This document shows, in pieces, positions 18,847 through 64,000 of a stretch of 64,000 nucleotides of DNA. The translations under genes were made by a program, and so were the position numbers. Numbering within the stretch: the first letter of the stretch is position 1; every line of letters begins with the position of its first letter. The DNA is from a virus (Duplodnaviria; Heunggongvirae; Uroviricota; Caudoviricetes): the IMG/VR virus record IMGVR_UViG_3300033463_000003. One strand, written 5' to 3'. The notes beneath the pieces are model-generated. The model did no database searches. It was not told where the DNA came from and saw nothing but the letters and a program-made list of their open reading frames with translations.

Positions 18847-19350
18847 ATGGAAAAACTAAAACTTTTAAAAGACTATATGGATGATGTGGCTATTGGCTGT
18901 GTGTTTACATTTATGTTTGATGTAGATGAAGAGCATGATGATAATGGCTGACTGCATCAATATTCTTGTAATAGCTCTGAAGATTTTGTTGTTAAATATG
19001 GAACTGTTAAGCAGCATATATTAACTGACTATTATGTAGAAAGAGTTAATACTATCCATTCTTCTAACGACCAGGGAATTGATGAAGTTCTTATTCTTGT
19101 CGATAAAAAGAAATATGACTATGATAATGAACCTGTTACTTTTACTCCTGTCCAACATAAAATAATCAATAAATATTACGCTGCCACTTCTGACGTCTTA
19201 GTTGGTAATGCTGTTATTATGGATACTGGCAGCGGTTGGAATGCTATGGAAGAAATTGTTTCAAGAATTAATAAGTTAAGCCCCGAAGATAAGAATAAGA
19301 TTAGAAGTATCTTTTTAGGCTATAACTATAAGAAATATGTAAAGGATTAA
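18847..19350 (+). CDS. hypothetical protein (167 aa) containing one in-frame TGA at 18946
   Basis: The frame stays open from the ATG at 18847 through the TGA to the TAA at 19348. This is the first TGA-containing gene after the early module. Confidence 0.5.
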
Positions 19351-19354
19351 TTAT

Positions 19355-19873
19355 ATGCCAAAAGTAGATTTAACGCTTAAAAATGCAAATGAATTAAATA
19401 TTGACTTATCTTCTTTTCATAGGCCAGATTATAAGTGGAAGAATTATTATATTGAGGATACAGAGCAAAACTTATTATTCTTAGTTCCTTCTTATCTTAA
19501 ATATGGTGTTATTGTTTTAGACTTAACTCTTGCCAAAGCTGCTTCATTTACTACTAAGGATGGGGCTGTTCATATGCTAAAAGATTATGCCTGGGGTATT
19601 TCTTCTAATGTAAGGCGAACTAATTATCCTAAAACGACCGTAACTGATAGAAGTATTAAATGTGGAAGAAGGACTATTTTACTTAATTCTATTCTTCTTG
19701 ACCATAATGAAATAATTGACCCAGAAGGAAGATATGCTATTACTCACTTAAATGGCAATACTTATGATAATCGTTTATGTAATCTTGCCTGGGGAAACTT
19801 AAAAGAAAATAATAATAAAAAATATACTGCTGGGATTTCTGAAGTTAAATATCCTTTCAAAACCTGGTGGTAG
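19355..19873 (+). CDS. HNH homing-endonuclease-like protein (172 aa)
   Basis: ITHLNGNTYDNRLCNLAWGNLKEN matches the HNH_3 motif (H-x-N-G-x-x-x-D-N-R-x-x-N-L). Confidence 0.55.
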   Translation: MPKVDLTLKNANELNIDLSSFHRPDYKWKNYYIEDTEQNLLFLVPSYLKYGVIVLDLTLAKAASFTTKDGAVHMLKDYAWGISSNVRRTNYPKTTVTDRSIKCGRRTILLNSILLDHNEIIDPEGRYAITHLNGNTYDNRLCNLAWGNLKENNNKKYTAGISEVKYPFKTWW

Positions 19874-19905
19874 AGCGTTGTATAATATATTGAGGTAATT
19901 TGTTT

Positions 19906-20823
19906 ATGAGCCAATGGACACATATTAGAGGTGGACTTGAATTAGTCAGCACCCCATACGAAATGAAGAAAATGCCTAAATCTTTAGTTGAGCCAAAAAG
20001 AGAAGACTTTGAAACTGATGAAGCTTTTGAAGAAGCTCATGATAAGTATAGATGGGAAGAAAGAAAGCTTTACTATTTTCCATACCCAGAAGAACAATTT
20101 AAACTTTCTATGCCACTCCCTGCTACTACATATACTTGGCATGGAAAAGATAGAAAGAATAGAAAAGAGCATAAGAGTATTGATTTTAGAGCTTATATTT
20201 ATTCTTTACCACGTGCTAGAAAGTATATTGAAGAGGCCTTTAAACTTATGCCACAAGGTGAATTAGGCTTTAGATATTCAGTGGACCAAAAAGTTTATGA
20301 CAGCAGCTCTTCTTCAAGCGGCTTCTGGATGCCTTGTGAATATAAAGCTTATCAAGATGCTATTACAAGAATGTATAAGCATGAACATTATTGGAGTAAT
20401 TATACTTATGAAGATTTACGTAAGTATTTCTATATTGATGAAGAATGCTCAGTTGATAATGTTAACCATATTTTAATTGGTATTAGAGACGATATTAGAT
20501 ATTGCTCTGCCACTGATGTTCAAGAAGGCTTAGAAAAAGTTTTTAAGTATTTTGAAGATAATGGTATTAGTGTTGAAGATGGTTATTTAGAGTGGCAAGA
20601 TGAGTATGATCCAGACCATATTTATGCTTGGAGAAATAGTAGGCTAAGTTTTGGTATTAGTCATCAATTTATGACTTTAGATAAAAAAACTAATAAAGTT
20701 ATTCATTCTAAAACATGGGCAGTCAAACGTGATGAAAATGGCAAAAGAATGCATGACGAAAACTGGAATGATATTTGGGAAGTAGCCGAAAAAGATGGCC
20801 CATATTTTGATAAAGAGGACTAA
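19906..20823 (+). CDS. hypothetical protein (305 aa)
   Basis: ATG at 19906 downstream of a TGTATAATAT promoter. The track ORF started at a TTG codon at 19900. Confidence 0.55.
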   Translation: MSQWTHIRGGLELVSTPYEMKKMPKSLVEPKREDFETDEAFEEAHDKYRWEERKLYYFPYPEEQFKLSMPLPATTYTWHGKDRKNRKEHKSIDFRAYIYSLPRARKYIEEAFKLMPQGELGFRYSVDQKVYDSSSSSSGFWMPCEYKAYQDAITRMYKHEHYWSNYTYEDLRKYFYIDEECSVDNVNHILIGIRDDIRYCSATDVQEGLEKVFKYFEDNGISVEDGYLEWQDEYDPDHIYAWRNSRLSFGISHQFMTLDKKTNKVIHSKTWAVKRDENGKRMHDENWNDIWEVAEKDGPYFDKED

Positions 20824-20880
20824 AACTACTGTTTTTCTATTGTATATTATAGTAAGAGTATTGAAAGGAAAAATTAAAAA

Positions 20881-23362: not shown

Positions 23363-25912
23363 ATGACAAAATTTAAACCAGGTGATGTAGTAAGAATAGA
23401 GCCAAAATGATTAGACGTTGGTGAAGATCCTAATACTGATTATATTGTATTAGAAGATTTAACTGATGAAGTTTTTGCTGATGGCAGAGTTAAAATAATG
23501 ACAAAAGCTGAAAATATGGTTTTCCCATCTGTTTCAGAAGTTTCTTATGATATGGTTTATAAAATTGGTCATGTTAATATTGGCGCTGATGGTTTAACTG
23601 AAGATGTTAGACTTACATTAGATCCAAGTATTCATAATGGTGAAGAATTTTTTGAACCAATGGATATTAATATAGAAAATGCTCGTATTATTTATGAAAA
23701 TGTTAAAAAAGGCTATGATAAGATTGTATTAGTTGCTCTTGAAAGTGGCCCAAATGATTTATTCAAAAAAAGAAAAGCACTTTCTTGGCTTTTAATTGCT
23801 ATTGTTTTAAAATTTGATCATGTTATTGCTTTATTAAAAGAGTTTATGCTAAATGAACTTAACATTTCTTTAGATGAACTAAAAAGGCTTATTAAAGAAT
23901 GTACTCATGATAAAGCAATTACAGATAGACTTGTTGAGGTTAAACATGCTATTTTTGGTGAGCCTCTTGAAGATGAAGAAGATACTAGCCAAACACAACA
24001 ACCAACCCAACAAAGTAGCGGTACAAAAGCTGCTAATGCTGGTGTAACAAATATGGGGGTTGATCCAAGTAAAAACTTCTGTAGACTAGTTGTTTATGAT
24101 GATGGCTATAGTTATCCAGTAAGACGTCATTTATATGTTAGCAAAAAAGTTGGTAATACTTATGCTATTACAGTTGGTGGTTCACAATTAGCACCAAGTC
24201 ATGACTGGTGGGATGAGCCATTATTTGATAGCTTGCCACAAGCTTTAAATTTTATTCATAATGTAAATCAAACTAACATTAAAACTGTAGTTGATACTCG
24301 TAATTTTAAATATAATGTTACAAGCAAGCCAATTGATTTAGGTTATAGGGATGCAAATGGAAATAAAGTTCAAATTGTTGATTTAAGTGATTCTGTTTTA
24401 GTTGATACTGCTTGTGGTCCAGCTTATATTCAACGTAAAAATAAAAAATGTGTTGAAAGTTTAACTGAAGAGCTTTGGCCAAAAGAACATAATGAAACAA
24501 CTGTAGAATATTTTGAAACAAACGAAGTTATGAAAGCAAAAGTCAAAGATTGGCTTGCTGCTGAAAAGCCTTGTGAATACCAAATTGAAAATATTCCAGA
24601 AGATTTAACCTGGGAAGAAGTTATTAATGCTTATAAAGAAGGCAAAGAACCAAGGGGCGGATTACATCTTGACACTGAACCAAGGGAATATGTTTGGCAA
24701 AGAGCTGGCGAGTTATATTATTTACAAACAGGTGAATTTTTAGACGCCGACTTTGAAAGAGTATATAAAGAAAAAAGAACTGACCTTCAAACACCAGAAG
24801 AAAAAGTTGAAGGCGAAAAAATGTTAATGATAACTAAGCCAGGTATTCCCGAAGATGAAGCCGCGGTTGAAGAACCAGTAGAAGAGACTTTGGTAGAAGC
24901 TAAAGAAGAAAACTTAGAAGAAAAAGTTAGAAAAATTGTTAAAAGTTTCTTTAGTGAAGATAAATCCAAAATGAGCATCTTAGAATATGATAATGGCTAT
25001 GATGGATTTGTTGAAACTTTTGGCGAAGATGAAAATGGGCATCATGATGTAATTGATTTTGGTGTTTTTACCTATAATGATTTGTCAGATGAAGATATTG
25101 AAAAAGGTAAACCTGTTATTACTTTCTTACTTTCAGGTGGCTTAAATGGTTCAGGGGACTGAAAAGATTATTTAAGTGATATCTCAGATTTATTTAAAGA
25201 ATTTGAAGATAAATTAAATTTACATGCTATTATTTATAAAGCTAATACTGATATTGCTGATGATGTTTGAACTGCTGAAGTTTTACTTTACATTGATAGA
25301 GATGAAGTTAAAGAAAGTCTAAATGAAGACTTAATTGTTGTTGAGCCTTTTGAAGCTAAGGAAAAATTAGAGGAAATTAAAGCTCAAATTGAAGAAGCTA
25401 AAGACTGAAAAGTCCGCAAAAACCTATTAACTTTAATGAATATCTATTTATTCCAAACAATCTATGAAGCAGATCATCAAGAAGAAAGAAATTGTAATAT
25501 CAATAAAGATGAATGGGATGAATACTCTGATTGGCACACAGAACAGGCTGAAGAACTTTATGATGAACACCCAGAACTTGAAAAAGAAGATAAAGAAAGA
25601 GAAGCTAAAATTGAAGCCTCTATGGAAGATGCTGGTTCAGAAGAAACTGAAGAACATGAAGAATTAGAAGAAGATTTAATTTCAGACTATAATTATGCAG
25701 TTTGGTGTGAGGCTGGTTATGAATTCTGTTTCTACATCTTATCTAAAGCAAATTCTGAGCTAGAGGCAGAAAAAGAAGTCAAACAAGCTCACCCAGAATA
25801 TGATGTCTATTGGGCTAGAGCATTAACACCTGAAGAAAAGGCCACTAATAAGATTTTAGAAGGTGTTGGTAGCCTCACAGAAATATATAATGATTTAAAT
25901 GAAGGGAAATAA
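23363..25912 (+). CDS. Large acidic hypothetical protein (about 850 aa) with four in-frame TGA codons
   Basis: Track ORFs 23498-25162 and 25436-25912, plus the intervening stretches, share one frame with no TAA or TAG between them. ATG at 23363 preceded by ggaaaag. Confidence 0.6.
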
Positions 25913-25915
25913 TTT

Positions 25916-26323
25916 ATGGATTGGCAAACAGGATTAGCAATAGGGGCATTAGTTGTATCAATTGCATCAGCAGTATTTACATTTATATCTGCAATTAGGG
26001 TTGCGAAGATAAGTCATGTTAAAGATTTACATGAGTATGAAAAGAAAATCACTTATTTTGAGCTTCAATTTAAAGATGAAATGTGGCTATATGATTTATT
26101 TAAAAATGATGAATTCCACAAATATAATTATAAAAGTCAAAAAAGAATTTTAAAGTGGTGGAAAAAATATCAAGAAACTCATCCAACTATTTTATTAGAT
26201 AAAGAAGTAGAGTTTAATAAGCATTTAATTAGTATGTGTATCGGCCCAGAAGCTATTATGAAAAAAGAAAAAGAGCTTAAAGATAAAGAAAAAGGTAAAG
26301 ATGACGGCTCACTTGACTGGTAG
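25916..26323 (+). CDS. N-terminally membrane-anchored protein (135 aa)
   Basis: TM helix LAIGALVVSIASAVFTFISAI. C-terminal half rich in Lys and Glu. Confidence 0.5.
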   Translation: MDWQTGLAIGALVVSIASAVFTFISAIRVAKISHVKDLHEYEKKITYFELQFKDEMWLYDLFKNDEFHKYNYKSQKRILKWWKKYQETHPTILLDKEVEFNKHLISMCIGPEAIMKKEKELKDKEKGKDDGSLDW

Positions 26324-26328
26324 GAAAA

Positions 26329-27015
26329 ATGATTAGTAATATTGTTTGAAATGATTATGAAATGCATGATTTTTTTGCAGAGTGTGCTGAATATGTGCAA
26401 GAAAATATTGCAAAAAAGTTTAATATTAAGCTAGAATTAAAAGATATTCGTGATAGTGTTTCATGAAGTCAACTTACAGCTTATGTTGCAATAAATGATA
26501 CTGATGTTTTATTATGCTCTATTACTTATGCTAGCTTAGAAATAAAAACAGGTATTAAGTCAGATAGTCTAGTGCTTAATTTAGATAATATGCCAGCTGC
26601 TGCAAGAGCAAGTTTAAAAGATTTTGTCTGTGGTAAGATTTGGGAGGAAGTAAAGCATAGTCAAGAGTTATGACGAGTTATATTTAATTTAATCAGGAAA
26701 AATTGGAACCACCAAGTTATAGCTAGAATGTGTGATACTTGTGCTGATATTATTTATAACAATCGTGGTATTAATGTTAATTATGCAAAGCTTGGTTTAG
26801 AAGATGACGGTTATGAAGCTTTCTTTGCAGTTGATTCAGATATATTTATGGTGCCACTTCATTATGTAGATATTGTAATGGCTATCTTTCCAGATGTTCA
26901 AGTAGAAGATGACTTAGTTTGATTTGATGAAATTGACTTAAGTTCATTAACTAAAGAACAACAAATATCATTAGGTAAATATATAATTCAAGCCATCTGA
27001 ACAATCTTAAAATAA
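26329..27015 (+). CDS. hypothetical protein (228 aa) with five in-frame TGA codons
   Basis: One frame stays open from the ATG at 26329 to the TAA at 27013. It incorporates track ORF 26728-26922. This is the highest TGA density in the window. Confidence 0.5.
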
Positions 27016-27088
27016 TAAAAATTGTTAAAAAAGGTATACAAAAATAAGGTATATCTTTTTTATTTTATTGTATAATATTATGGATATT

Positions 27089-27244
27089 ATGACCCCAAAA
27101 GAAAGATTAATTAGATACTTTAATTTATCAAGCAGACGTTCAAAATTAACAGTGGACGAATTTCATGAACTACTACATTTGGAAGAAGCTTTAGTAGATG
27201 ATATAGATGAATTAATAAAATTGCAAAGGGAGGACAAGCAGTAA
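27089..27244 (+). CDS. hypothetical small protein (51 aa)
   Basis: Downstream of a TGTATAATAT promoter. Its stop overlaps the next ATG. Confidence 0.35.
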   Translation: MTPKERLIRYFNLSSRRSKLTVDEFHELLHLEEALVDDIDELIKLQREDKQ

Positions 27245-27654
27245 TGGATGCATCAAAGAAAATAGAATTAGAGCTAAAAGATGTATATCAAATGCTTATA
27301 AGTGAGTGCAGATATGGCTATACAAGAAATAACCATTTAATGCCTTCTGGGGCGTACGATAAAGTTAAAAGAATAATTCCACAAATGTATAAAGTAGATA
27401 AAGAATATGCTATTTATACACTTAAACAGATTTGTGAAGAATGTATTACAGATGAGCTTGATTGGCATTTTTATGATAGCCCTGACGATGAATTTAATAA
27501 TAAAGCTGAATCAATTGAGTTTATTAAATGGTGCTTTGATTATATATATGCAAATACTGCAGATTTTGATAAAGATTGGAAGCCGTATTGTTTAGATAGA
27601 TTTGAAGCTAATTTAGAAAAAGGAAGTTGTAATAAAAAGAGGTATAGAAATTAA
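27244..27654 (+). CDS. hypothetical protein (136 aa)
   Basis: ORF with an AGGGAGG RBS. Confidence 0.55.
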   Translation: MDASKKIELELKDVYQMLISECRYGYTRNNHLMPSGAYDKVKRIIPQMYKVDKEYAIYTLKQICEECITDELDWHFYDSPDDEFNNKAESIEFIKWCFDYIYANTADFDKDWKPYCLDRFEANLEKGSCNKKRYRN

Positions 27655-27685
27655 AAACTATGCCTCTTTATTTTATCATTTAAAC

Positions 27686-27696
27686 TGCTAAATTAT
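27686..27696 (+). promoter_or_regulatory. Late-class motif TGCTAAATTAT
   Basis: Motif family. Confidence 0.45.
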
Positions 27697-27709
27697 ACAG
27701 GGTATTTAT

Positions 27710-28825
27710 ATGAGTAATTTTAAATATATACAAAATAATCAAACTAAGGATATAGCAGACTTATTAATTAATTCAAGCACATATTGGTATCCAAAAGTAA
27801 CATATTCTGGATATTCTCCAGCAATACAAGCTGTAGCACCATGCACTTCAAATGGCTGGGAGCAATACGATAATCTTTCAAATTATGGTTATAGCTATTC
27901 ACCAGATGCAAATAATGGAAGATTTATAAAAAAAGGTTATATACCAACATTTGTAGGTGAGGATACAAGTTCTGGTTCAGGCGCTTGATATAGCACAGGT
28001 CGTAATGATGTATATTTGCTAACTGTAGCATCTGATTCTTCATATATAAATATACATGCTAACTATACAGGCATTGATACAAAAATTACAGCAAATAGAT
28101 TTAGGGATGGCGTTGTTCCAAAAAGAATGATATTAATGCTTCAGGGTGCCGGTGGTGGAGGCGCTTATGGTGAAAAGGATACATATGATTCTTATCCAGG
28201 TAATGGCGGTGGCGCTGGAGCTTTTTGTGTTGTTGTTATTTCTACTAATCCTGGTGAAGCATATACAATAGTTGTTGGTGAAGGTGGTGCAGGTGGGTGA
28301 AGCCCAAAATCGGGTGGAGATTCTTATATACAACTTAATAATGGAACAGTTTTAGTTAAGGCTGGTGGCGGTGCTGCTGGTGGTAGTGGTGGAAGCTATT
28401 CAACACCAAATGGTGAAAATGGCTATTGATGACATTTGCCAAGTAAACGTGTTGGTAGCGATGGTACATTTACATATAATGATTCTTGCTATAATGGAGC
28501 ATCTGGTGGTAATGGTGGTTATCCTAGTAATCCACTAACTTATGGGCAGCAAGGTGGCAGTAGGGGGACTGTTACAACTTATACTAGTTTTGCTGATGAA
28601 ATTAAACATAAGTCATTAACCTGAACATATGTAAATTTTGCTAGCCCAAGTGGCGGAGCCGCTAGTGGCGGTGGCGGAGGAGCATCATCATTTATTGGCC
28701 AAGGCGGTGCTGGAGGCGGAACAGGTCAAGATGCCCCAGGATATGGCGCTGGAGGCGGTGGCGGCGGCTTTGGTGATTATAAAGGTGGCCGTGGTGGTAA
28801 TGGTTGATTTGCATTATATTACTAA
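27710..28825 (+). CDS. Glycine-rich repeat protein (about 371 aa) with five in-frame TGA codons
   Basis: Track ORFs 27710-27988, 28016-28300 and 28436-28624 share one frame and continue to the TAA at 28823. Repeated G-rich blocks include QGAGGGGAYG, PGNGGGAGAF, GEGGAGGW, GQGGAGGGTG and GAGGGGGGFG. Confidence 0.6.
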
Positions 28826-43900: not shown

Positions 43901-46900
43901 GCAAATAAGCTTTGAATCAAGATATCCAGAAGAATATGGTGAAGATGATCATGCTTATGGTACAAAGCCAGGCGAATTAGATAAGCTTCAAGCAGTAATG
44001 TCCTGGGTTGTTTCAACAAAGCGTTTACCAACAGATAGCGATGAAGAAAAAGCTAGAAAATTACAAAAGTTTAGGGATGAATTTGAAGATCATTTTAATT
44101 TACAATCTTCATTATTTTACTACTTATATACAGAATTATTCTTAATGGTTGACTCTCGTGCTAAAAACGCGATGTTAGCTTACTTAAAATCACATACACC
44201 AGGTGATAAAGGAAACAGATGGTTCTGGCTCCCATACGATATGGACACTGCAATAGGTACTAACAACGAAGGTTTATTAGTATTTAACTATGATGCTGAA
44301 GATACTGATATTGTTAATGGTGCTAACGTTTACAACGGCCAAGCTTCTGTTTTCTGGAATAACTTACGTGATGCTTTCCCAACTGAACTAAAACAGCTAT
44401 ATAGAGACTTACGTTCAGGCGCTGCTGGCGGTGATATGAAGTGGTCATATGATAATATTGAAAAATTATTTGAAGATCATCAAAGCTATTGGTCTGCATC
44501 TATCTTTAATGAGGACTCATATACAAAATATCTTGAACCATTAATTAATAATAATGATGCCACTTACTTAGGTATGGCACAAGGTTCAAAAGAAGAGCAA
44601 CGTAAATGGTGGTTGTGGAATAGATTTAGATATTTAGATAGTAAATATAGAACTGGTGATGCACAAGATCAGTACATTATGCTTCGTGCTTATGCTAGGG
44701 ACAATCTTGTTGTTACACCATATATTAACTGTTATGTTACGGGCGTTTTTGACCAAGTTAAAGATGAATCAATGGTTACAGTTGATGCATTAAAAGATAC
44801 TGCATATACAATTGTTCCACCTGAAACATGGGACCCAGCACGTATGGGCTCTGGTGGTTCTGACTCTGTTGTTGCTATTTATTCTGCTGATTTATTAAGA
44901 GATGTTGGTGATTTATCAGGATTTAAGCTTGGTTATGCAGACTTTTCACGTGCAACAAAACTTCAAAGATTACAAATTGGTTCAACTGCCCCAGGATATA
45001 CTAATAATAAACTAGAAACGCTTAACGTTGGTAATAACCACTTACTTACATATCTTGATGCTAGAAACTGTTCAGCACTAGGAACAGGTGATACTAAGAT
45101 TGTTGACCTTTCTAACTGTAATAGTATTGAAGAAGTTTACTTTGATAATACTAATATTCAAGGTGTTATGTTCCCTGTTGGTGGTAACTTAAAGAAAGTT
45201 CATTTACCAGCTTCTATTACTGACTTAACAATTAGAAGTCATCCAAATCTTAATGAATTAAAATTATATGGAACAGATAACTTAACATCAGTTTGGCTTG
45301 AAGATATTCCTTCTTCAAGTATTTCAGCTGTTGAAATTATCAGTGCAATGGATGAGGGTGCAACTGCTCGTTTAATTAATATTAATGAAACTATTGATTC
45401 AGTTGAAACTCTTGAAAATTTCTATGATAAGCTTTGGACTATGAAAGGTAAAGATAACAAAGGTGATACTACAGACAAAGCTCAAATTACAGGTATTATC
45501 AATCTTTCACAATTAACTAATATTTCATATGCTGACTGGGTTAGATTATCTGCTATGTTCCCAGAAGTTGAAATTAGAGGCAATATTATTTGTAATGTTA
45601 ATTTCTGGAATGATGATGTTTTATATGCAACAAGAAATGTTATACTCGGTCGTGCCGCTGTTGCACCAGAAATGCCATCACGTACACCAACAGCTCAATA
45701 TTACTATACATTTGCTGGTTGGGATGGCGATTTTAGTACAGTAACTCAGGATTTAGATATTCATGCTACCTATGATGAACATATTCAAGTATATCATATT
45801 ATTTTTGATGTACGTTCAGAAGTAATTGAGCTTGAGCAAGATACATTTGATTTAGAATATGGTTCAGCAATTCCAGAGCCAGTTATTATTCAAGAGACTA
45901 TCCCAGAAGGTGTCAATTTCTTAGGTTGGCATACAGCTAATAATGACCTAGTTGATTTTAATACAATTACTGTATCTGGAGATATTATTAATTTCCCAGA
46001 GACCAAGAATATTATTATTTCTGCCCGTTGGCAAGATGAAAATGCTCCATTAGTTACATTATCACGTATTTCATATAATAAATTTGCATATAGAGCTACT
46101 GATAACTTAGGTATTGTTGCTTATGCAATTACAGATAGCGAAGTATTAACACCAATTGATGAAAGATGGCATTTAATTACTTCTACAACATTGTATGAAG
46201 GTGAACATACAATTAATGCTACTGGTGATTATTATTTCCATGTTAAAGATGATCAAGGTAATACATCATGGGCAAAAATTACAGCATATGAAGTTAATGT
46301 AATTCAAAATATTAATAATGAATTTGATAGTTCTACTAATATTATTCAAGTTACATATTCAGAACAAGCAGATTTAAGTAATCAATTTACAACGGTTTTT
46401 GCACTTTCTGGCACAAAATTATATATAGATGCAACAAATGATTCACATTATGAAAATTTAAGCTTAAAACATAATGCAGCAGTTGTTAACATTGGTGATT
46501 CTATAACTGTTAACCAAACAATTGTTATTATGGCAAGTGTTACACCAAAAGTATATCGTGTTACATTTGATATTAATTTACCACAAGCTTTAATTGAATC
46601 CTTAACCGAGGAACAAATTGAAGCAATGACTCCATGGCCACAAGATGTTATTTATAAGCATAAAGTTATTGAGCCAGAACCACAATCATTAAATGGCTAT
46701 ATTCTTGATGCATGGAAAACAATTGATGATGAATTATGGAGCTTTGCATCTAATGTAATTTTAGGTGCTCTAACATTGTATGCTGTTTGGGCAGAGTACT
46801 CAGACCCAACAACTATTGTTATTGATACAACTGAAGAAAATCAAGAAGTTCATATTAATTTATGGCAAGAAACTGCAATGGCTGTAAAGGTTGTTTGGGG

Positions 46901-48233
46901 TGATAATACCGGTGAGCAAGCAATCAATGAAGCTGGTGGTGTTACATTTACACACACATATTCTGATGCTAATACATATTCTATTCAAGTTTATAGATAT
47001 GCAGGAAATTATCATTTAGGTTGAAACTTTGATACACCAGCAGTACAACCAATTAATATTGTTTCTGATGTTATTTTTGCTTTTGATGTCGCTTATACAA
47101 ATCCAGGTGCATTTAGAGGTGCAACACATCTTAGTACAATTCGACTAACAAGATTTATGACTAAGATTGCAGACAGTACTTTTGAAGATTGTACTGGAGC
47201 CGTGTCATTTGATGGCGGAACTTATAATATTCCAAATTCAATTCAAAATATCGGTGGTCGTGCTTTTGCTGGTTGTACAGGCTTAACGAGAGTTACATTG
47301 CCAAGTAAACTTCAAGTGTTAGGTGATAACGTATTTAGAGGATGTACAAATCTTACAAATATTACATTTTCTAACGAATGTACATTAGCTAAAATTTCAG
47401 CTTATGCCTTCTATGGATGTTCAAGTTTATCCACAATAAATATTCCAGGCAGTGTTACAACTATTGGTGAAAATGCTTTTGGAAACTGTATAGCTTTATC
47501 AGAGCTATATTTAGGCACAAATGTTACAACTATTAATTCAGAAGCTTTTGCTAACTGTTCTTCATTAGAATATATTACTATTATGGCCCCACATATGATT
47601 ACTATGGATAGAGACTGCTTCTATGGTTGTTCATTATTAGAAACAGCTGGCCCAATTAGTGGTAATTATAATATTAAATTTGGTTGGACACAAGTAATTC
47701 CAGCTAATGCATTTAACGTATCATATGCTGCTGCATCTGCTTTACGTTCAATAACTTTACCATTAACTATTGAAGAAATTGGTGATAATGCATTCTATGA
47801 CTGCCAATACTTAAATAGTATTAATTATGTTGGTAGTACATATGATATTAATATTTTCCCAAATAGCTTACGTATTATTGGTAATAGCTGTTTTAATGGC
47901 TGTGCATCACTTCAAAATATTACTATCCCATCTAGCGTAGAATCAATGGGTGATAGTGTATTTAGAAGTTGCCGTGGCTTAACAAGAGCTTATTTATATT
48001 TAGCAAGTAGTAGCCATAAGATTGATTCACCACTATGTGGTTGGTTCTATAACACAAGATTTATTACACAACCAGATGGTTCACAAGTACAGCAAATTGA
48101 AATTCATGTTCCAAATGATATTACAGAGGGACAAGATGACCTTTATTACGGTGCATATTGGAACTGTCATATTTATGATGGTACTTCCCAACCACCAACA
48201 ATTATAATGCTTGCGTATATAAGCGACCTATAG
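40956..48233 (+). CDS. Giant structural / host-interaction protein (about 2425 aa) with three in-frame TGA codons. Contains a Gly-rich N-terminal region, a CotH-like kinase-fold domain and C-terminal BspA-type leucine-rich repeats.
   Basis: Track ORFs 40956-41249, 41514-42161, 42675-47024 and 47157-48233 all lie in frame 0. The inter-ORF stretches of 264, 513 and 132 nt contain no TAA or TAG. TGA codons are at 41250, 42162 and 47022. SRAKNAMLAYLKSHTPGDKGNRWFWLPYDMDTAIG resembles the CotH catalytic region. The C-terminal region carries repeats of the form G(C/N)xxLxxIxIPxSVxxIGxxAF(xxC), as in BspA-type leucine-rich-repeat proteins. Confidence 0.7.
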
Positions 48234-48497: not shown

Positions 48498-49106
48498 ATG
48501 CCAAGAATGCCAATAGTTACTCCCAAAGATGATAGAATTCAAGAAAAGCCAAAGGCTGTTCGCCCTGTTAATCCAGTACAGCCACCTAAAAAAGAATTCC
48601 ATAGGGATAATACATCAGTTTATATTCAACCAGTTGACTTTGATTTAAAGTTAAAAGTTTTAGCTGAAGATACTGCTAGAACTTATTTGCCTTTAGATTT
48701 TGATAACAACTCAGAAATTGAGCAAAAAACAGCTGAAGAGCTAGCAGATACAGCTTATATTTTTGTTGATAATAATGGAAAGCCAACTAAGGTTTTGGCA
48801 ACCTCTGTTTTAAGAACATTTATTAAATGAAACGATTTAGCAGATAGCACAAAAACAAGAATTCAGCAAGCTATTGATATAGCTATTGAATCAAATAAGC
48901 TTAAAGCAGGTGATAATATTACTATTGAAAATAATATTATTAGTGCTAATATTGGTGTAGCCTCACTTAATGGCAAAATTGGTAGTATAACATTATCAGC
49001 AGAAGATTTAAATGCTTATACAAAAGATAAAGTTTATACAAAAGATGAAACACAAGATATTATTAATAATTTAATTATAGAAGTAGATGGAGGACGAATT
49101 GAATAA
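48498..49106 (+). CDS. hypothetical tail-associated protein (202 aa) with one in-frame TGA at 48828
   Basis: Track ORF 48498-48830 continues in frame to the TAA at 49104. Confidence 0.5.
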
Positions 49107-49107
49107 T

Positions 49108-49779
49108 ATGAGTAATACTATTAGAATTGATGTTGTTCAACTAAAGCGTGGCAATAAAGCAGATTTAGAGCGTGTCCTCCGTGGCATACTTAAACCAGCA
49201 GACGGTGAACCAATTTTTGAAATAGATACAGGCAAACTTAAATTTGGTGATGGTATTCATAACTATGTAGACTTAGAATATTTTAGAACTGGTGATATTC
49301 AAGTTGCTGATGCTTTAAATGGCCAAATTTTAACATATGATGCCGCCCAAGCAAAATGGGTTGCAAGTAAGTTTGCAGATAATAAAAGTATTGAGTATAC
49401 TGAAAATGGCTTACAAATTGCAGGTTTTAATACTCCTGCTGCCCAACAAGGTTATGGACCGATTGTTAATGAAGATACTATTAACTGGCAAAAAGTTGTA
49501 ACAGATGAAACACTAAATGCAAAAGTTCAACAAGCAGATAGTGCAGCATATCAAGCTGGTCAAGCTGCAGCAAGTGCATTTTCTTCTGCTGAAAATGCAA
49601 ATCGTTCTGCAGGTCAAGCAGAACAATTTAGAGACGCAACTGCACAACTTATTAATGATAAATTCTGGTTTGGCACAAGAGCAGAATATGAAACAGAAGT
49701 TATTGGTCAAAATCAATTACATGAGGGAACAATATATTTTATTCGTGATTATGATTGGATTGATTTCCCAAATAACTAA
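49108..49779 (+). CDS. Tail-fibre protein with a conserved N-terminal fibre/hyaluronidase-type domain (223 aa)
   Basis: KRGNKADLERVLRGILKPADGEPIFEIDTGKLKFGDGIHNYVDLEYF matches the N-terminal signature shared by many Gram-positive phage tail fibres (R..T...W...NP.L..GE.G.E.DT.K.K.GDG...W..L.Y). Confidence 0.55.
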   Translation: MSNTIRIDVVQLKRGNKADLERVLRGILKPADGEPIFEIDTGKLKFGDGIHNYVDLEYFRTGDIQVADALNGQILTYDAAQAKWVASKFADNKSIEYTENGLQIAGFNTPAAQQGYGPIVNEDTINWQKVVTDETLNAKVQQADSAAYQAGQAAASAFSSAENANRSAGQAEQFRDATAQLINDKFWFGTRAEYETEVIGQNQLHEGTIYFIRDYDWIDFPNN

Positions 49780-55289: not shown

Positions 55290-55790
55290 ATGGCAGAATA
55301 TCTAAGTAGTTTTGCAGGAAAAGAAGTTGATAGAGCAATTAGCAAGCTAAAAAACTGGGCGGCTGCTGGTTTTGATGCAAGCTTAGCAAATATGACCACC
55401 ACAGATACCTATGATACTGTTACTATTAATAGTGCTACTTATGCTGTACTTTGGAAAGTTGCTCCTACAAGCTCAAATACAGTATATGGTATTGGATTAA
55501 GCACAACCACTGGTGCTATTTATCAAATTAAGTCTACAAATGGCACAAAAACAGCCGTCGCATTAGATACTGATACAAAGACTACTGCTGCATCTGCTAA
55601 TAGTGATAATAAATTATTCTTAATTGGTAGAACACAACAAAGCTCAACTGGTGATACAACATATTCAAATACTCAAGTATATGAAACAGCTGGCACATTA
55701 AATGCAACTAAGTTTACAGTTGATGCAGCACATACTGGCGGTACAATCCAATATAATACTACAACAGGATGTATAGAAATTATATGCTAG
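55290..55790 (+). CDS. hypothetical structural protein (166 aa)
   Basis: ATG at 55290 after a GGAGAG RBS. In frame with track ORF 55224-55790. Confidence 0.5.
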   Translation: MAEYLSSFAGKEVDRAISKLKNWAAAGFDASLANMTTTDTYDTVTINSATYAVLWKVAPTSSNTVYGIGLSTTTGAIYQIKSTNGTKTAVALDTDTKTTAASANSDNKLFLIGRTQQSSTGDTTYSNTQVYETAGTLNATKFTVDAAHTGGTIQYNTTTGCIEIIC

Positions 55791-57841
55791 CAGATTTTAT
55801 CGTAGAAAAAGATAAGCTTATTCTAAGGAATTTGAATAAAAATGGTGCAGCTTTAGATGTTTGGTCATCAGGCAGCTCAAGCTATAATTTTTATAATGTG
55901 CCATATGAAACTCCTGTAGTATTAGACCATTATTACTACCAAAGATTTACATATAAATTTACTACAACTAATCAATCACCAACTTGATCACAATTTTATA
56001 TTCAAGGCGGTATGAGGGGTGGTCCAAATATTTCTAATCCGGTAGCTGGAACAGAGTATACAGCAAGTGGTATTCAAACAGTATCTATTACAAGTCCAAG
56101 CTATACTATTACTTCTGGTACTTTATATAATGGCCCAGGTGGTGCAATTAGTGGTGTATCAGCTCAAGCAAAAAATGTTCTAATTTATGATGTTACAATT
56201 TTAAGAACATATTTAAGAGCCCTAGGTATTGCTACAACTGATTCAGCAATTAAAACATGGTGTGATAATAATTTAGTTTATGTTCCACCATATACTGATT
56301 ATGATATTTCAAACCTTCTTACAAATGATGCTACAAATAAAGTATATATAAAAGAAGGGCATATTATTGCAAATAACTTTATTGAATGTGATGGCATGAA
56401 ATACTATTCATATAATAAAAACTTAGATAATTATTTTGATGAAAGTTTATCTGGTGTATCAGTATATAATAATTCTGGTAATGGAACTGTTACTCATACA
56501 CGAATTTCTGCTGAAACACAAGATTCACCATTTCTTGGAAAACACCCATATATTCTACAAATTACTACAAATGGGACAGCCAGTCCTGGTGCAGGCGGGC
56601 TAGTTTTATACCACCAGTCAGCGGCCAATAAAATATTTGTAGAAAAAATTGTGGCAAAAATTCCAGTTGGCTATACATTAAATTGTTACTATAATCCACA
56701 AGGTGATGGCGCTTCAATTGGATTTATTTCCTCCCAAGCTGGAACAGGTGATTGAGCTGAGTATACTGTGCTATATAAGTGTGGTTCAAGTGGTTCATTT
56801 TCAAGCGGCGGGCATCTTGCATTAGTAGCAAATAGTGGCTATAGTAATACCTCAGTTACTTGGTACATTGCATATGCTAATAACTGTGATATTACTGATA
56901 AAGAATACCTAAAATATTATACTGCTATGCCAGACACTTATAGATTTAAAGATGGAAATATATATGATACAAAATTTGATACAGTAAATTTATTTCCAAA
57001 TGGTGATGCAAGTGACCAGACAATGCCTTTACCATCAGGCTGGACTTATGATACCGAAGATTATGCTGGAAATGCAAAGTGTTCAATTGTTCAACCAGTT
57101 AATGCAGCTGCAGGCACATTTGATGTATTTATGCCAATAGATCCAACAGCATTATATAAAGTTTCTTATTGAGTAAAAACAACCGGGGATATGTCAAGTT
57201 TTTTAACAGCTATATATTTATATGCTTCAAATAAAACCACTCAAATTGTTCACGCTAATTCTCAGTATGTTTATGGCACAAAGACAAAATTAGCCCAAGA
57301 TTTAGTAAGTGGGGCAACAGAAGTATATCTTAATTCAGTCTCAAATTGGACTATTAAGAGCTGGTCATCTTTAGGGATCAGAAATAATGAATATAATTCA
57401 ACTTATAATGATATATTAACTTATGATAATGGTTCAGGTGGTATTGTTGGTGCTGTAGATACCACAAATAAAAAAATCACTCTTACAAAAGCTTATTCTG
57501 GTAATACAATAGCTACTGGTAAAACTGTTGTAGAAAGCTTTGATGGTAGTAATCATCCATACCCAATTAATAAAAATATGTTGCCAACTGATAACACATG
57601 GAAGTATGTTGAAGGTACTTTCGGAAAAGCTAATACTTTATCAGATGGTCAAGCAAATTCTGGTGGCTCAACTTGGCAAGGTATTCCAGCAGTGGTTAGA
57701 TATATAAAGCTAACACCAAATTTATATAAAAATACAAGTACAGCAGCAATTAAATTTTCAGATATAAGAATAGAACAAATAAGTAATTCAGCAGGTCATA
57801 GATACGAAAAAAAGATAGCATTTAAAAAACATTCAGTATAA
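55769..57841 (+). CDS. Tail-fibre-like protein (about 690 aa) with three in-frame TGA codons. Exact start uncertain (55769 or 55784).
   Basis: Track ORFs 55769-55987, 56012-56755, 56768-57172 and 57191-57841 all lie in frame 2 with only TGA between them. Confidence 0.55.
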
Positions 57842-57856
57842 TAAGGAGAAAAAAGT

Positions 57857-59436
57857 ATGGCAACATTAGGTGATACCACGGTAACTAGTCTAAATGTACT
57901 AAATACAACTACAACAAATAAAATAAGTGCACCAACATCTGATGGTGGCTCTACTTTTGGTTTGGGCTCTAATGGTCAACTATTAAAAACAAATGGAACA
58001 ACTATTTATTGAGGTGCTATTAAAAAAACAGACTTACCATCTCTTACAGCAAGTGATGTTAGTGCATTACCAGCTAATACAACATACCTTGAAAGTATTG
58101 TATCTACTAGTGGTGATAAATCCTGGACATTAACTAATTCTTTAAATACTTCGTGATTGATTCCAAAAGATGGACATAAGGTCAGTTTTAAAGATAGTAG
58201 CGGAAATAATATTTTTACTGTATCTTCATTTAATGATGTAGTAATAAAAGAAGGCAGTAACATTATTATTACAGAAGGCACTAATGGAACTGCAGTTATT
58301 TCAGCAGATTTCACTAATAACTTAGCTCCAGCCTATAGTGCATCTTCTACTTATTCACTTGGTGCAAAAGTTATTTATAATGGACAACTTTACAAATGTA
58401 CTACAGCTATTTCTACAGCAGAAGCTTGGAATAGTGCTCATTGGACAGCTATTAAAGTTTCTAATGGATTTGTTGATTTAGATTCAACACAAACTATTTC
58501 TGGGGCTAAGACATTTGATACATCGGGTAGTATCAATACAAATGTTACTATTTCCGGTGGTTTTGGTGGTCAATCCGGGTATGAATCAGACGCTATTGGA
58601 GGCTTGATGCTTACAGGTGCAGCAAGTGGAATGTATGGAAAAGCAACTTTATTATTAGCTCATGCTAGTGCCAGTTCTTCTGCCTCTAGCCCAGTGAAAG
58701 TATATTTACCAAATGAAACAGGTACTGTCGCTTTAAAAAATATTGATAATAATTTTAGTGCAAAACAAACATTTTTTACTGGTATAGGTATTGACAATGA
58801 TACTTCCAGCCAATATCCACTTAATATTGAAAAAAGTGCTACATTTAAATTAAAAGCAACGGCTGCAGTTGCTACAAATTATAATACTGAGTATGATTTG
58901 CAAAATAATTACTTAATACTCAAACATGTATCATCTTCAGCCGATTCCTATTTACAATTTCCACAAGGAAAAGGAAGCGTATCTGGAAGTACTATTACTT
59001 ATGCAACTCTTGCAACAACTGATGACATTACTAATGCCTATTGGGCAAATGTAAAAGTTTCTACTAGTAGTTCGACTTCAACCAGTCCAACTTTTGGTAC
59101 CGCTACTATAGGGTCTCTTGGTTATGCTCAAATCTATGCCTATGAAAACTCTAATTCAACTAATTCTGCAGTTATAAAAGTTATATCTGGCAGCACTACA
59201 GCAAGAGCATTATATATACAACCATATGGATCAGCTGGCAGTGCTTCAAATACTGGTAGTGTAATTATTGGTGGAGCTGTTGAATCTTCCCCAAATAATG
59301 ACTATAAATTAAGAGTGGTTGGCAATACCGCAGCCTCTTCTCTTACATTAATAAATGTTGATGGTAGTATGAATTGAAGTGCAAAAGCAACAATGTCCTA
59401 TGACACAACAAATGAGTGTATAAAATTCACATTCTA
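57857..59436 (+). CDS. Tail-fibre-like protein (526 aa) with three in-frame TGA codons
   Basis: ATG at 57857 after an AAGGAG RBS. In frame with track ORF 58157-59377. Continues through the TGA at 59375 to the TAA at 59434. Confidence 0.55.
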
Positions 59437-59479
59437 AAATTTTAATGTATAATAAAAAGTAAAGGATAGATTATAAATA

Positions 59480-62400
59480 ATGGCATTATTAGCTTGGTTT
59501 CCATTAAATAATTCAATAACAAATTTAGGTGAAAATACTTTTACTATTACTTCACCTTCTTTTACTGGTGCTGTAAATACAGGTGGAACTGGGAAAACAG
59601 CCACTTATTGCGGTAGTTTTTCTACTGTATCTGGTGCAGCACAATCATATTTATCATCAGAAACTATTTCATTAAAAAGCACAGATCCGATTTCTATTTT
59701 TTGCTGAGTTAAAATGAATAGCTTTAATATGATAAATGATGGTGCATATTTAAATGGGCTTGTATCAAATCATAATCATGGGCATAATAGCGACCATGGC
59801 TCTGGTTTTGGCCTTAATTTAAGAAATGATGGAAGCAGTTTTAGAGTAAGTATTTCAACATCACATACTAGTGGTAGAACTTATTCTACTTATTATGGCA
59901 ATACTACTTTTGGAACTGGTGAATGGCATCACGTTGGTTTTACATATGATGGCACCAAGATTAGGCTTTATTTAGATGGAAATTTAGATGGAGAGTCTTC
60001 TTTTACTTCTTCTTATAATTCAAATAACCCAATTGGTCTAGCCTGTTGGTCTACTGGCTTTTCTGATTATGGAAGTGAATGTTGCCTTCAAGATGTAAGA
60101 GTTTATAATCATGCTTTATCAACAAAAGAAATAAAAAATCTTGCAAGAGGTTTAGTTGTCCACTATGATTTTGAAGATATTTATGAGCTTGTTGATTGTG
60201 TAAATTTTTTCACTCTCTTTACTGACGCTGGAACTCTTGATACTCTACCAGCTACACCTGATTATAATTCATTTGTATTAGAGGTTAATGCTACTAACGC
60301 TGTTCCAAGTTCAACTTCAGCCCGAACTTTTATTATTTGTAATGGAACGGTTACATTAAGTGGTAGTTCTGGCGGTGTGTTTGTTATAATGCCTATATTG
60401 TCACCAACTTGAGGTATTTATGTAAATGGTAATGGATATTATGGCTACTATGATGGAACTAATTATGTAGATACTAGTATTTTAGCTAGTTCAGGTAAAG
60501 CAATAATTACATATAATTATACAACTCATATTTTAACAGTAAACAATTATAGTGTTAACGTTTCATTTAGTAGCAAGCCAAATGGGCTTATGCCATGTGC
60601 TAGTAGAATTGCATATGTAACAAGTACTACATCTATTAATATTTATAGTTTAAAATTTTTTGATAGCAATAATAAGTTAGTGAGTGCTTATTTACCTGCA
60701 ACTAGCCATACTGATGGTACAATTGGCCTATATGATAGAATTACTAACAAATTTATTACATCGCAATTAGATATACTTTCAGCAAATACTCAAGCTACTC
60801 CAGCAAAGATTCAAACAAAAATTGTACCTGATATTAGTGGTAATTGCTTGCATGGACAGTTTAATGCTTCAACTTCATTTGTTAGTGATACAGCAATAGG
60901 AACAAAAGCTGCCTCATGTGCTTCAACAGGCATTATTACACCAACATTACCCGTATTTACACAATATACTATTTCTATGTGGTTTAAGCTTGGGGCAACT
61001 GGTACTATGCCACTTGGTTCAAATACTTTAACAGCACAAAATACATCTTTTTACTGCTATGGTGATAACTCTTGAGCATATACAACAAGTGCAGGTTGGC
61101 AAGAAAAGTATTATAATCATAATGGTGGTGCTGTTTCTACCAGCAATTGAGTTCATTGGGTAGCAACATATGATGGAACCAATACTAAAATTTATAGAAA
61201 TGGTGTGTTAGAGGGAACAGATGCTGTTACAACAGCTGGAGCCACTGTTAACTTCCCACAAATTTCAGTTGGCTATGGGTATAATGGTTCTTCTTATTGG
61301 TCAACACAAAAAATTGCAGATTTTAGACTTTATGCAACAGCTTTATCAGCTGATGATATTTTAGAGCTATATAAATGTAGAGGAATAATTGATAAGGCTG
61401 GCAATATTTATAGTGATAGTAGTATACCTGGTAGTGAATTTACTATTACAAAAAAGGGCATTGCAACTATTGATGATTATACAAAAGGCGGTAGTATTGC
61501 CAAAATTGCAGGAAGCAAATATACTCGCCTTGAATATATTGAATCTGTTAATGGATCAGCATATATTAATACTAATTATATTTATAGTAATAGTGCAACC
61601 GATAATGCTAGAATAGTTGTTGATTATACACCAGTGACACTATCTGATGATGGTACATACTATAAATATCGTGTTAGTGGTTCATATAATGGCGAGCCTT
61701 ATAGAGCAATGATTTTATATGGTACTCCTGCAACTGCTGAACAATTAAGACTTGGTAATGGTGCAGGTGATTATCCAGTTTTAGTATCAGGAAATGCTTT
61801 TCATCCAGCCGCTGGGACAAGATATTTAATGGATTTGACAGCTAAAGGTGGTGTTGTCTCTGGCACAGTTAATGGTGTAACAGCATCTGGTACGTATTCA
61901 GGAACAGTTTATAGTAATAGGCCATATTTAATTTTTGCAAATAATGAAAACGGAACACCAGGATACTATGGTAGATTTAGACTGTATAGTTTTAAAATGT
62001 ATGACTGTGATAAATTAGTTAGAGACTTTATTCCAGTTAAAAAAGGTACTGCTGTAGGATTATATGATTTGGTTGAGGGCAAATTTTATAGCAATGCAGG
62101 TGCAAATTCATTTACTGCTGGCCCAGAAATAGGGAGTTTAAATGCCATTAGTTGTAACAATTTTTATGATGATGGTGGTGCCGCTATTGCAACACATAAT
62201 TTATTAGCAAATAAGTTAATAAAAAATAATATTACTGTTGTTTTAAACACAGGTGTTAATAGTATTGTAGTAACTAAAACAGATTTAGATGGTGGGCAAT
62301 CAACTCAAACATTTATATCAAATGGAACATGCTCAAGTGCAATTAATTATCCATATGCATGGACAGCTAGTGCTAAATCATCTTATTCAGTATATCCAAG

Positions 62401-63196
62401 TAGTGGTAGCGGCTATTTTCATAATGGTGAATATACTGTTATTTCACCAACCGCAACAAGAAAGACACAAACAATTACTATATCATTACCAACTAATGTA
62501 GCATCTGTTACATTAACTTATTATAATGCCTCTGAAACATCAACAACAACTACCTTTACTTCAAATGGTTCAGTTACAGCAGCTCAAGGCTATACCTATT
62601 CATGGACAGCAAAACCAGCTCGTGGGTATTCTTTAAGCTCATCAAGTGGAACTGGTACTGTTTCTACAGTAGCTATAACAGTACCATCAACAACTGCTAC
62701 AGCTTTAACTGCCTACACAATGGCATTTACAAGTAATACATACTGCTCTTGGGATAGTAGTACTTCTGCAACAATATATTCTGGTGAGTATTTAGAGGTT
62801 AGTACTCTTGCACTTGGTACCATACTTAAGCCTTATGTTTCTTGTAAGAGCGATTCAAGTAGTAGTGCAACTACTTATTGGACAAGACAGGTTACATTAG
62901 GAAGTGAAACTGGTTATACATACTCATTTAGTAATTTCTATCAGGGAACTTCTAGTTCAGGCACTGTTTTATCATCTAGTACATATGATGGTAGTTTTAC
63001 AAATATTTATGCTTATACTACAAGGACACAAGAATGTTCAAGTTATAATGTTTGTACGGGCCGTACAATTTGTGGTAATAACATTATAATTTGTGGATCC
63101 AGAACCATTACATGCCCAACTAGAGGTATATGCACTAAGGATGTACTCAGCAATGGTGATGACTTAGATAATGAGTGGGAAGAACATATTATCTAA
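59480..63196 (+). CDS. Multi-domain LamG/ConA-like lectin-fold fibre protein (1238 aa) with four in-frame TGA codons and a Cys-rich C-terminal tail
   Basis: Track ORFs 59480-59707, 59714-60412, 60590-61075 and 61205-63196 all lie in frame 2. LamG_3 signatures ISIFC(TGA)VKMN...GEWHHVGFTYDGTKIRLYLDG and TISMWFKLG...VHWVATYDGTNTKIYRNG. The C-terminus reads CTGRTICGNNIIICGSRTITCPTRGIC. Confidence 0.65.
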
Positions 63197-63229
63197 AAAT
63201 AATTGTATAATATAATTAAGGTAAATAGT

Positions 63230-64000
63230 ATGCAATTTGTATTTCAGATAACTTATAACTGTAATCTTAGATGTGAGTATTGTTACCAGCCAAAAACTAA
63301 GCATAAGGTTCTTAAAAAAGAAGAAGCTTTTGAATTTATTGATGAGTGGTTTAAATACTATATTACAGATGAATCAAAAATATTTTCAGTGTATATGGCT
63401 AAACATGATAAGCCAGAATCTTACACCTTAAATTTCTTTGGCGGTGAACCATTACTATATCCAGAGCTACTTATGGATATAATAGATTACTTTAAAGAAA
63501 GCTGTATAAAAAATAATTTAGAGCGTCTATGGGATAATACTTCTATTGTTTTTCAGACAAATGGAACTTTAATTCAAACACCTAATGTATTAGCCTTAAA
63601 AGATAAATATAAAGATCGTATTATCTGGCACATTACTTTTGAAGGAACAGCAGAGTGTCAGGATGCAAAAAGAAAATTTGCAGATGGTAGTGGTTCTTAT
63701 AGTATTATTAAAGATAATTTGGACTATCTTATAGAAGAATATAATGACCCAGAATTAAAACGCTTTCCAGATAAGCTTACTTTTACTCCTGAAACTGTGC
63801 CATTAATATTATCAGTTACAAAAGCATTAATAAAAATTGGTTATCACTATGTTGGGTTAGACTATGATTCAACAATACAGATTAATGAAAAAGAATCTGA
63901 AGAGTATTATCAAGCTTTATGCCGAGCAATTGATTATATAGTTGATAATAGAGTTAGACTTTATCCACGTCATTTTGGTTATACTTATAATAATACAACA
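63230..64000 (+). CDS. Radical SAM enzyme, anSME/SPASM-maturase-like (3'-truncated at the window end, at least 257 aa)
   Basis: ITYNCNLRCEYCYQ (CxxxCxxC at residues 11-18, as in anaerobic sulfatase-maturating enzymes and peptide-modifying rSAMs). NFFGGEPLL SAM-binding motif. Its own TGTATAATAT promoter at about 63206. Not in the ORF track because no stop lies within the window. Confidence 0.6.
   Translation, partial: MQFVFQITYNCNLRCEYCYQPKTKHKVLKKEEAFEFIDEWFKYYITDESKIFSVYMAKHDKPESYTLNFFGGEPLLYPELLMDIIDYFKESCIKNNLERLWDNTSIVFQTNGTLIQTPNVLALKDKYKDRIIWHITFEGTAECQDAKRKFADGSGSYSIIKDNLDYLIEEYNDPELKRFPDKLTFTPETVPLILSVTKALIKIGYHYVGLDYDSTIQINEKESEEYYQALCRAIDYIVDNRVRLYPRHFGYTYNNTT

Follow-up and report, generated by a model that had tools for sequence, protein, structure and literature searches.

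Evidence that a large phage reads UGA as tryptophan and keeps an early-type gene block neutral between genetic codes

Under the standard genetic code, many genes of the tailed phage record IMGVR_UViG_3300033463_000003 (Caudoviricetes) fall apart into same-frame pieces separated by TGA codons, and a block of small genes in the same sequence stays intact. Do these TGAs terminate translation or do they encode an amino acid, and what sets the intact block apart? These questions were addressed on a stretch of 64,000 nucleotides from this record (the window), for which an initial annotation had proposed a module-specific reading of TGA as tryptophan. The window, with a GC content of 32% and nearly all genes on the plus strand, belongs to the genome of a large phage of virulent type. 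Contigs identical or related to it are 204–273 kb long with approximately 32% GC and probably originate from rumen or gut; an identical anaerobic ribonucleotide reductase (NrdD; P0001) was found on a 273,303-bp JGI contig. The window contains no capsid, portal or terminase gene, and no terminase was found in the fetched flanks either. A blastn search of INPHARED returned no close relative, the best protein match being the NrdD of Clostridium phage c-st (40%).

With TAA and TAG as the sole stops, about 78 genes tile the plus strand, each terminating in one of these two codons; none of them is terminated by TGA, and the single TGA present at a gene end (15708) is backed by a TAA. Gene prediction repeated block by block with translation tables 11 and 4 changed strongly past 18.8 kb and hardly at all in the 4.1–18.8 kb block. 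Indeed, the 18.8–64 kb region passes from 56 open reading frames (ORFs) and a coverage of 0.853 under code 11 to 39 ORFs and a coverage of 0.960 under code 4, the fusion of same-frame pieces raising the longest ORF from 1409 to 2425 aa, whereas the 4.1–18.8 kb block yields 40 ORFs (coverage 0.820) and 41 ORFs (0.826), respectively. For the window as a whole, coding density in ORFs of at least 80 aa increases from 0.76 to 0.875.

Every TGA position named in the initial annotation is present in the sequence, and its two main examples hold. The gene at 40956–48233 (plus strand), which encodes a 2425-aa protein with BspA-type leucine-rich repeats and Listeria–Bacteroides repeats, forms 2425 codons without TAA or TAG and is split into four pieces of one frame by TGAs at 41247, 42159 and 47022; the gene at 59480–63196 is cut into five by TGAs at 59705, 60410, 61073 and 61148. 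A long TGA-free stretch does exist within the former, with limits other than those first given (42162–47021, 1620 codons). In all, 38 in-frame TGAs were counted, the one at 15708 included. They are carried by 13 solid genes (nrdD and 12 genes past 18.8 kb) instead of the at least 15 initially announced, and a count of about 17 is reached only if doubtful short ORFs or an upstream nrdG start are admitted. Because standard-code annotation fragments nrdD and a third of the late genes, code 4 is needed for annotating this phage.

Judging from comparisons with homologues, UGA is evidently read as tryptophan (genetic code 4), and never as a terminator, in this phage. The best decoding test is provided by NrdD, because homologues from standard-code organisms exist. 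The nrdD gene (1657–3603, plus strand; 648 aa, with PHROG and Pfam NrdD matches) carries TGA at 2203, 3205, 3337 and 3475, and its product is full length only when these codons are read through. In an end-to-end alignment with the NrdD of Thermotoga maritima (PDB 4coi, E = 4e-151), the masked TGAs face W, W, F and Y, and across 120 close homologues the same columns hold W, W, W and Y/W. Orthologous codons were also compared at the DNA level, a procedure independent of any translation table: at 45 related IMG/VR loci, the first three TGA codons of nrdD correspond to TGG and the fourth to TAT, TAC or TGG, mostly Tyr. When all genes with orthologues in the nearest relatives are compared, TGA stands opposite TGA five times, opposite TGG 15 times and opposite another codon five times. 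In a relative with a 91%-identical NrdD, TGA is kept as TGA at three of the four nrdD sites and at a site in an SNF2 helicase gene.

The second line of evidence comes from the gene at 59480–63196 (plus strand), whose 1238-aa product contains two Laminin_G_3 domains according to Pfam, with TGA at aa 76, 311, 532 and 557. Among alignments with 16 homologues, W stands opposite aa 76 (TGA 59705) in 17 of 19 and opposite aa 557 in 6 of 14, and aa 311 and 532 lie in variable columns. The internal duplication of this protein had been put forward as a direct decoding test, and this was right in spirit: when residues are counted from the TYDG motif that both copies have, aa 557 falls where the first copy carries its conserved LamG Trp, W149 (TGG). 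However, when the two copies are aligned by MAFFT with TGA masked, both informative columns are off by one position, and the test is therefore supportive only. TGG remains the majority Trp codon as described, with 84% versus 16% for TGA in the late region.

The block that is insensitive to the choice of code extends from 4101 to 18846 on the plus strand and comprises about 38–41 short genes, fewer than the roughly 45 first proposed. It includes 56 TGG codons, and TGA serves there neither as a sense codon nor as a sole stop, which makes the block neutral between codes. The only in-frame TGA, correctly singled out in the initial annotation, belongs to a TGA-TAA tandem (15708–15713, plus strand) at the end of the gene 15567–15713, whose product is nearly identical under both codes. 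Once tabulated, TGA frequency is not uniform: in-frame TGA/TGG counts are 1/56 in the early block and 33/171 in the late block (Fisher p = 0.003, or 0.0004 if 15708 is taken as a stop). Out-of-frame (+2) TGAs are comparably frequent in the early block and elsewhere (64 versus 70 per 1000 codons), so that the early depletion is specific to the reading frame.

The same block is punctuated by 16 near-identical sigma-70-type motifs, TTTAC(A/T)-N14-(TG)n-TATAAT, between 4092 and 16287, each 20–40 nt 5' of a Shine-Dalgarno sequence and an ATG. All 16 are on the plus strand, against 0.18 matches expected from shuffled sequences, and none is present elsewhere in the window. In composition, this motif is that of a classic promoter for host sigma-70/sigma-A and includes an extended −10 element, and 16 such host-type promoters would mark the block as early independently of its TGA content. 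Its proteins are mostly short ORFans, which are typical of early host-takeover genes. At five places (4084–4109, 4407–4424, 5708–5735, 6530–6551 and 9066–9095), a terminator-like GC hairpin carries the −35 element TTTACA in its loop and provides the promoter spacer with its T-tail, an arrangement resembling compact terminator–promoter fusions between early units. Two early genes, 4463–4927 and 13000–13443, are paralogous; both match phrog_1987 (E ~1e-35) and each lies directly behind an early promoter.

An IMG/VR contig (L051) identical to the window over positions 1–127 gives a further 19.7 kb upstream, bringing the sequence examined to 84 kb in all. Attempts to extend it further gave no match, neither for an exact 48-mer in IMG/VR nor in two metagenome scans. 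The early promoter motif is repeated there in two more blocks (window coordinates −12759 to −4511 and −559 to −152), in which the genes are TGA-free, and genes outside the promoter blocks bear TGA (five in that of a 1608-aa acidic protein, one in that of the SNF2 helicase). When window and upstream sequence are pooled, the TGA/TGG ratio is 1/~90 for promoter-block genes versus 43/209 for the rest (p = 1.3e-5). The motif was also detected in three relatives (L054, L035 and L003), and the block of L054 equivalent to the early block is TGA-free. The nearest relative, ENA WILK20 scaffold_108 (203,636 bp; NrdD 91% identical, with five TGAs in nrdD), matches the layout of the window, with a TGA-free array of small genes 3' of nrdD and the same promoter motif.

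The late/accessory region (18847–64000, plus strand) contains 35 genes with stops in TAA or TAG only, 12 of which have in-frame TGA, for a total of 33 TGA and 171 TGG. These are unevenly spread: TGA and TGG number 1 and 20 at 18.85–23.3 kb, 15 and 23 at 23.36–28.83 kb, 1 and 33 at 28.9–40.9 kb, and 16 and 95 at 40.96–64 kb, and this heterogeneity is significant (permutation p = 1.5e-4). The description of recoding as module-specific is thus right for the early block and too simple past it, because late TGA use is patchy. Another motif, TGCTAAATTA, is found in 11 copies between 16033 and 55258 on the plus strand (0.87 expected), with no copy before 16 kb. Ten of them (22221, 23316, 27686, 30147, 32493, 33203, 33680, 40535, 50305 and 55249) are located 15–50 nt 5' of late genes, which makes TGCTAAATTA a candidate phage-specific middle/late promoter. 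It is also seen 5' of a gene in the relative L052, around position 240. A third motif, TTGTATAATA(T), with an extended −10 and no obvious −35, occurs at 20840, 27068, 28867, 31020, 48470, 59446 and 63203; it stands 5' of a number of genes in this region, possibly as the mark of a middle class.

The nrdD gene uses TGA and is flanked by early blocks. On the plus strand, nrdD–nrdG is preceded by a terminator-like hairpin (1243–1270) followed by TAGCTAAATTT, a variant of TGCTAAATTA, at 1305–1316. Hairpin and variant may separate the nrdD–nrdG unit from the early-promoter blocks on either side, and the presence of TAGCTAAATTT would explain the TGA use of nrdD despite these neighbours.

The nearest cellular NrdDs belong to Clostridia (Eubacteriales, Hominicoprocola and Lachnospiraceae; 72–73% identity, 45–48% GC). 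At these loci, nrdD ends in TGA and approximately 40% of the genes use TGA stops, indicating that these Clostridia use the standard code. The promoters and strong Shine-Dalgarno sequences of the window are also of Firmicutes type, and a member of the Clostridia using the standard code is the most likely host. Concerning the decoder of UGA, a pattern scan of IMG/VR for tRNA(UCA) gave, among the matches listed, three elements of interest. A 223-kb contig from the same sample as the relative L004 (L070) carries a tRNA(UCA) about 300 nt downstream of a 56%-identical homologue (1721–2329) of the window gene 27244–27654, and on a code-4-like contig (L098) a tRNA(UCA) adjoins a tmRNA. The third (L146, 10711–10767, minus strand), 3.3 kb 5' of a 62%-identical nrdD, is a tRNA-like element with a UCA anticodon loop that covers Rfam tRNA positions 8–63 only (43.6 bits), has no acceptor stem and is not called by ARAGORN. 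UGA decoders are therefore encoded by kin of this phage, L070 and L098 being distant relatives that have genes in common with its lineage.

We consider it probable, at roughly 75%, that this is a code-4 phage of a standard-code host, in which code-neutral early genes would come first and a subset of genes with UGA-Trp codons later, in need of a decoder. Right after infection, host RNA polymerase would transcribe the 4.1–18.8 kb block and the similar upstream blocks from strong sigma-70/extended −10 promoters, and the early genes, having neither sense nor stop TGA, would be correctly translated while UGA still means stop. Later genes (nrdD, the SNF2 helicase and fibre- or adhesin-like genes) would lack early promoters and be preceded by TGCTAAATTA instead, and the approximately one third of them with one to six UGA-Trp codons would give a full-length product only after a UGA decoder becomes active. 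This decoder would most likely be a phage tRNA with a UCA anticodon, possibly aided by the release factor RF1 or a tryptophanyl-tRNA synthetase (TrpRS), and would lie in the other approximately 190 kb of the genome. As an outcome, some of the middle/late genes would be locked at the level of translation, on top of a promoter-class switch.

Several points weigh against this scenario. Two-thirds of the late-region genes are without TGA, including the holin-like gene and those of a 1196-aa and a 639-aa protein, so that the lock would cover only some late genes. The early/late split is not clean, since nrdD and the upstream SNF2 helicase gene use TGA too; in nrdD, usually an early or middle function, half of the Trp codons are TGA. 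Searches for tRNA or tRNA-like sequences (ARAGORN; Rfam, even at E ≤ 1–5) were negative for the window, for its 19.7-kb upstream extension and for 22 kb from the nearest relative. Neither RF1 nor TrpRS appeared in the 84 kb covered, out of a genome with some 190 kb more. The host is proposed from NrdD kinship and from the type of promoter and Shine-Dalgarno sequence, and the temporal classes are suggested by promoter motifs. The gate on late translation that was initially put forward is plausible and has precedent; the gating itself is a deduction, and neither a suppressor tRNA nor a release-factor gene was seen.

The pattern might also reflect constraint rather than regulation. A UGA-decoding tRNA would have been gained for unrelated reasons or by drift, TGG would have changed to TGA under AT bias wherever tolerated, and early genes would be TGA-free only since they are translated before the decoder is present, the recoded codons having no role in timing. 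Such a scenario, which we regard as unlikely but by no means far-fetched, accounts well for a late TGA use that is patchy and follows no obvious functional class, the holin-like gene being free of TGA, for a Trp codon usage still dominated by TGG (84%), and for the rapid turnover of these codons, with three TGA/TGG flips between NrdDs at 91% identity. However, the TGA share reaches six of eight Trp codons in the gene starting at 27710 and five of seven in that starting at 26329, above what drift at 16% usually gives (according to the same permutation). As constraint and regulation lead to one and the same expected sequence pattern, the data here do not separate them: what is seen would fit an evolved timer as well as a mere constraint on early genes.

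Somewhat more doubtful is a pair of variants that we take together and to which we would give only a small chance. In the first, the code switch would be coupled to promoter class: genes behind the host-type TTTACA-N17-TATAAT promoter would be strictly code-neutral, UGA-Trp would occur only in units behind TGCTAAATTA, and the TGA-enriched genes (23.4–28.8 kb, 55.8–63.2 kb and nrdD) would form a decoder-dependent class. In the second, the lineage would have no canonical tRNA(UCA) of its own and would decode UGA by other means, for instance a tRNA-like element lacking the acceptor stem, such as that of L146, or a modified host tRNA-Trp or RF2.

A Mollicute-like host using code 4, whose code the phage would simply share, appears very improbable. 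Mollicutes and their phages also read UGA as Trp, and a host of this kind would agree with the fact that TGA is never a stop and that no phage suppressor tRNA was seen in 84 kb. Yet code-4 Mollicutes, for which this is the host's own genome-wide code, use TGA for most Trp codons throughout the genome, whereas here TGA is a minority Trp codon (16% where used) and is absent as a sense codon from the promoter-defined early block (0/56), as the initial annotation had argued in favour of phage-type recoding. Moreover, it is implausible that a host with a genome of about 1 Mb would have a phage as large as 200–270 kb, standard-code Clostridia provide the nearest cellular NrdDs, and relatives of the lineage carry their own tRNA(UCA).

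The remaining possibilities, that translation does stop at the TGAs (the late genes being split, pseudogenes or misassembled) or that they encode glycine (code 25) or selenocysteine, have nothing more in their favour than the face value of standard-code gene calls and can practically be discarded: start signals do not follow the TGAs beyond background (a start codon with a Shine-Dalgarno sequence within 15 codons in 1 of 38 cases, background 1.7%), so that the same-frame neighbours do not behave as independent proteins; the essential C-terminal part of NrdD, with its zinc finger and glycyl-radical region, lies 3' of the first three TGAs and encloses the fourth; the same TGAs are retained in the relative with the 91%-identical NrdD; and the 38 sites lie in very varied sequence contexts, with TGA columns that are Trp or aromatic in standard-code homologues. 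Glycine, which the initial annotation had rejected, is never found at the nrdD columns and, among the LamG columns, only at the variable aa 532 (3 of 13 alignments).

Besides the two large genes described above, in-frame TGAs are distributed over ten late genes. Single ones are present in the genes starting at 18847, 30174, 48498, 49798 and 50346. The richest cluster (23363–28825, plus strand; Gly_rich_2 and phrog_863 matches) is made up of the genes starting at 23363 (849-aa acidic protein, four TGA; no relatives found in IMG/VR), 26329 (228-aa protein, five TGA versus two TGG) and 27710 (glycine-rich tail-fibre-like protein, six TGA versus two TGG). Two fibre-like genes within 55769–59437 (plus strand), starting at 55769 (690 aa) and 57857 (526 aa, with a CBM_5_12 domain), have three each. 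More generally, the late region encodes fibre-, adhesin- and carbohydrate-binding-like proteins (BspA leucine-rich repeats, Listeria–Bacteroides repeats, Laminin_G_3, Big_2/3, CBM_5_12, Mtd_N, Cthe_2159 and Gly_rich_2), together with a holin-like protein, a methyltransferase and an HNH endonuclease. The Mtd_N domain (N-terminal domain of the major tropism determinant, Mtd) was identified at 49087–49779 (E = 9e-9). In Bordetella phage BPP-1, Mtd is the protein that a diversity-generating retroelement varies; no reverse transcriptase accompanies the Mtd_N gene in the window. At the right edge, a radical-SAM gene with a 4Fe-4S cluster domain (63203–64000) is truncated, and no relatives of it were found in IMG/VR or the JGI metagenome collection.

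Further observations were made upstream and in relatives. The gene 27244–27654 has a paralogue 40 kb upstream (L051 6528–6968; window −13211 to −12771). The sequence 5' of the SNF2 helicase gene is very AT-rich over one stretch (L051 ~15390–15790; window −4350 to −3950), where AAGCTTA(T) is repeated many times, and scattered GC-rich repeats like GTACGTGCGC follow (window −3550 to −1300); this repeat region could act as an origin of replication or as a group of binding sites. Among RNA-repair and tRNA-related enzymes near the window, sequence reading alone suggests an RtcB-like ligase at L051 7016–8194 (window −12723 to −11545) and a Thg1-like enzyme in the relative L052 (4035–4829). ARAGORN predicts an odd tRNA-Phe with anticodon AAA at L052 145–216, L063 2181–2253 and L089 49–121, in tRNA arrays of several large phage contigs, one of which is a relative of this lineage. 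Some close NrdD homologues (P0011, 983 aa; P0022, 1025 aa) carry intein or LAGLIDADG insertions (PF14890, PF14528), and the nrdD of Clostridium phage c-st (L001; 2937 nt, ~980 codons) matches in two pieces.

Similar phages are already known. In the sections of their preprint considered here, Borges et al. (bioRxiv 10.1101/2021.08.26.457843) describe large TGA-recoded phages of the Jade, Sapphire and Agate clades, with predicted standard-code hosts among Firmicutes or Bacteroidetes. Recoded codons are located there in several late modules along genomes of 130–210 kb, recoding is variable in DNA-metabolism and replication genes, and TGA is lost or depleted as a stop. The code can differ between close relatives, only about 35% of the code-4 genomes have a suppressor tRNA that can be detected, and Jade phages have a code-change module (tRNA, TrpRS and RF1) upstream of their lysis cassette. 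The window phage likewise reads UGA as Trp, does not use TGA as a stop and has recoded codons in late genes; as its features match this description, it is a further case of an already described phenomenon. Unlike Jade phages as presented in these sections, however, it displays no code-change module (tRNA-UCA, RF1 or TrpRS) in the 84 kb examined, and its fit with this clade extends only to size (contigs of 204–273 kb) and Firmicutes affinity, the window having no terminase for placement. According to a survey of 2026 (PMC13037316), 8.75% of rumen jumbo phages use alternative coding.

As far as the accounts consulted go, the same organization is found in crAss-like and Lak phages recoded at TAG (code 15), in which the early genes can be read with the standard code, the reassigned stop is found in late structural and lysis genes, and a suppressor tRNA and sometimes a release factor are encoded. 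These phages differ in that TAG is reassigned to Gln, the hosts are Bacteroidetes and the genomes are unrelated.

The picture of recoded phages is unchanged by this case. What the window adds is an exact match between code-neutral blocks and the occurrence of a repeated host-type promoter, for which no evidence was found in the portions of Borges et al. considered, and that a separate class of motif precedes recoded units. Two separate timing markers, the host-type promoter and complete avoidance of TGA, thus meet on one strand of a single 64-kb stretch, which makes this phage a convenient test case for the known hypothesis that recoding acts as a lock on late genes up to the expression of a phage decoder, with promoter motifs that are direct handles for reporter assays and for the reading of transcript data.

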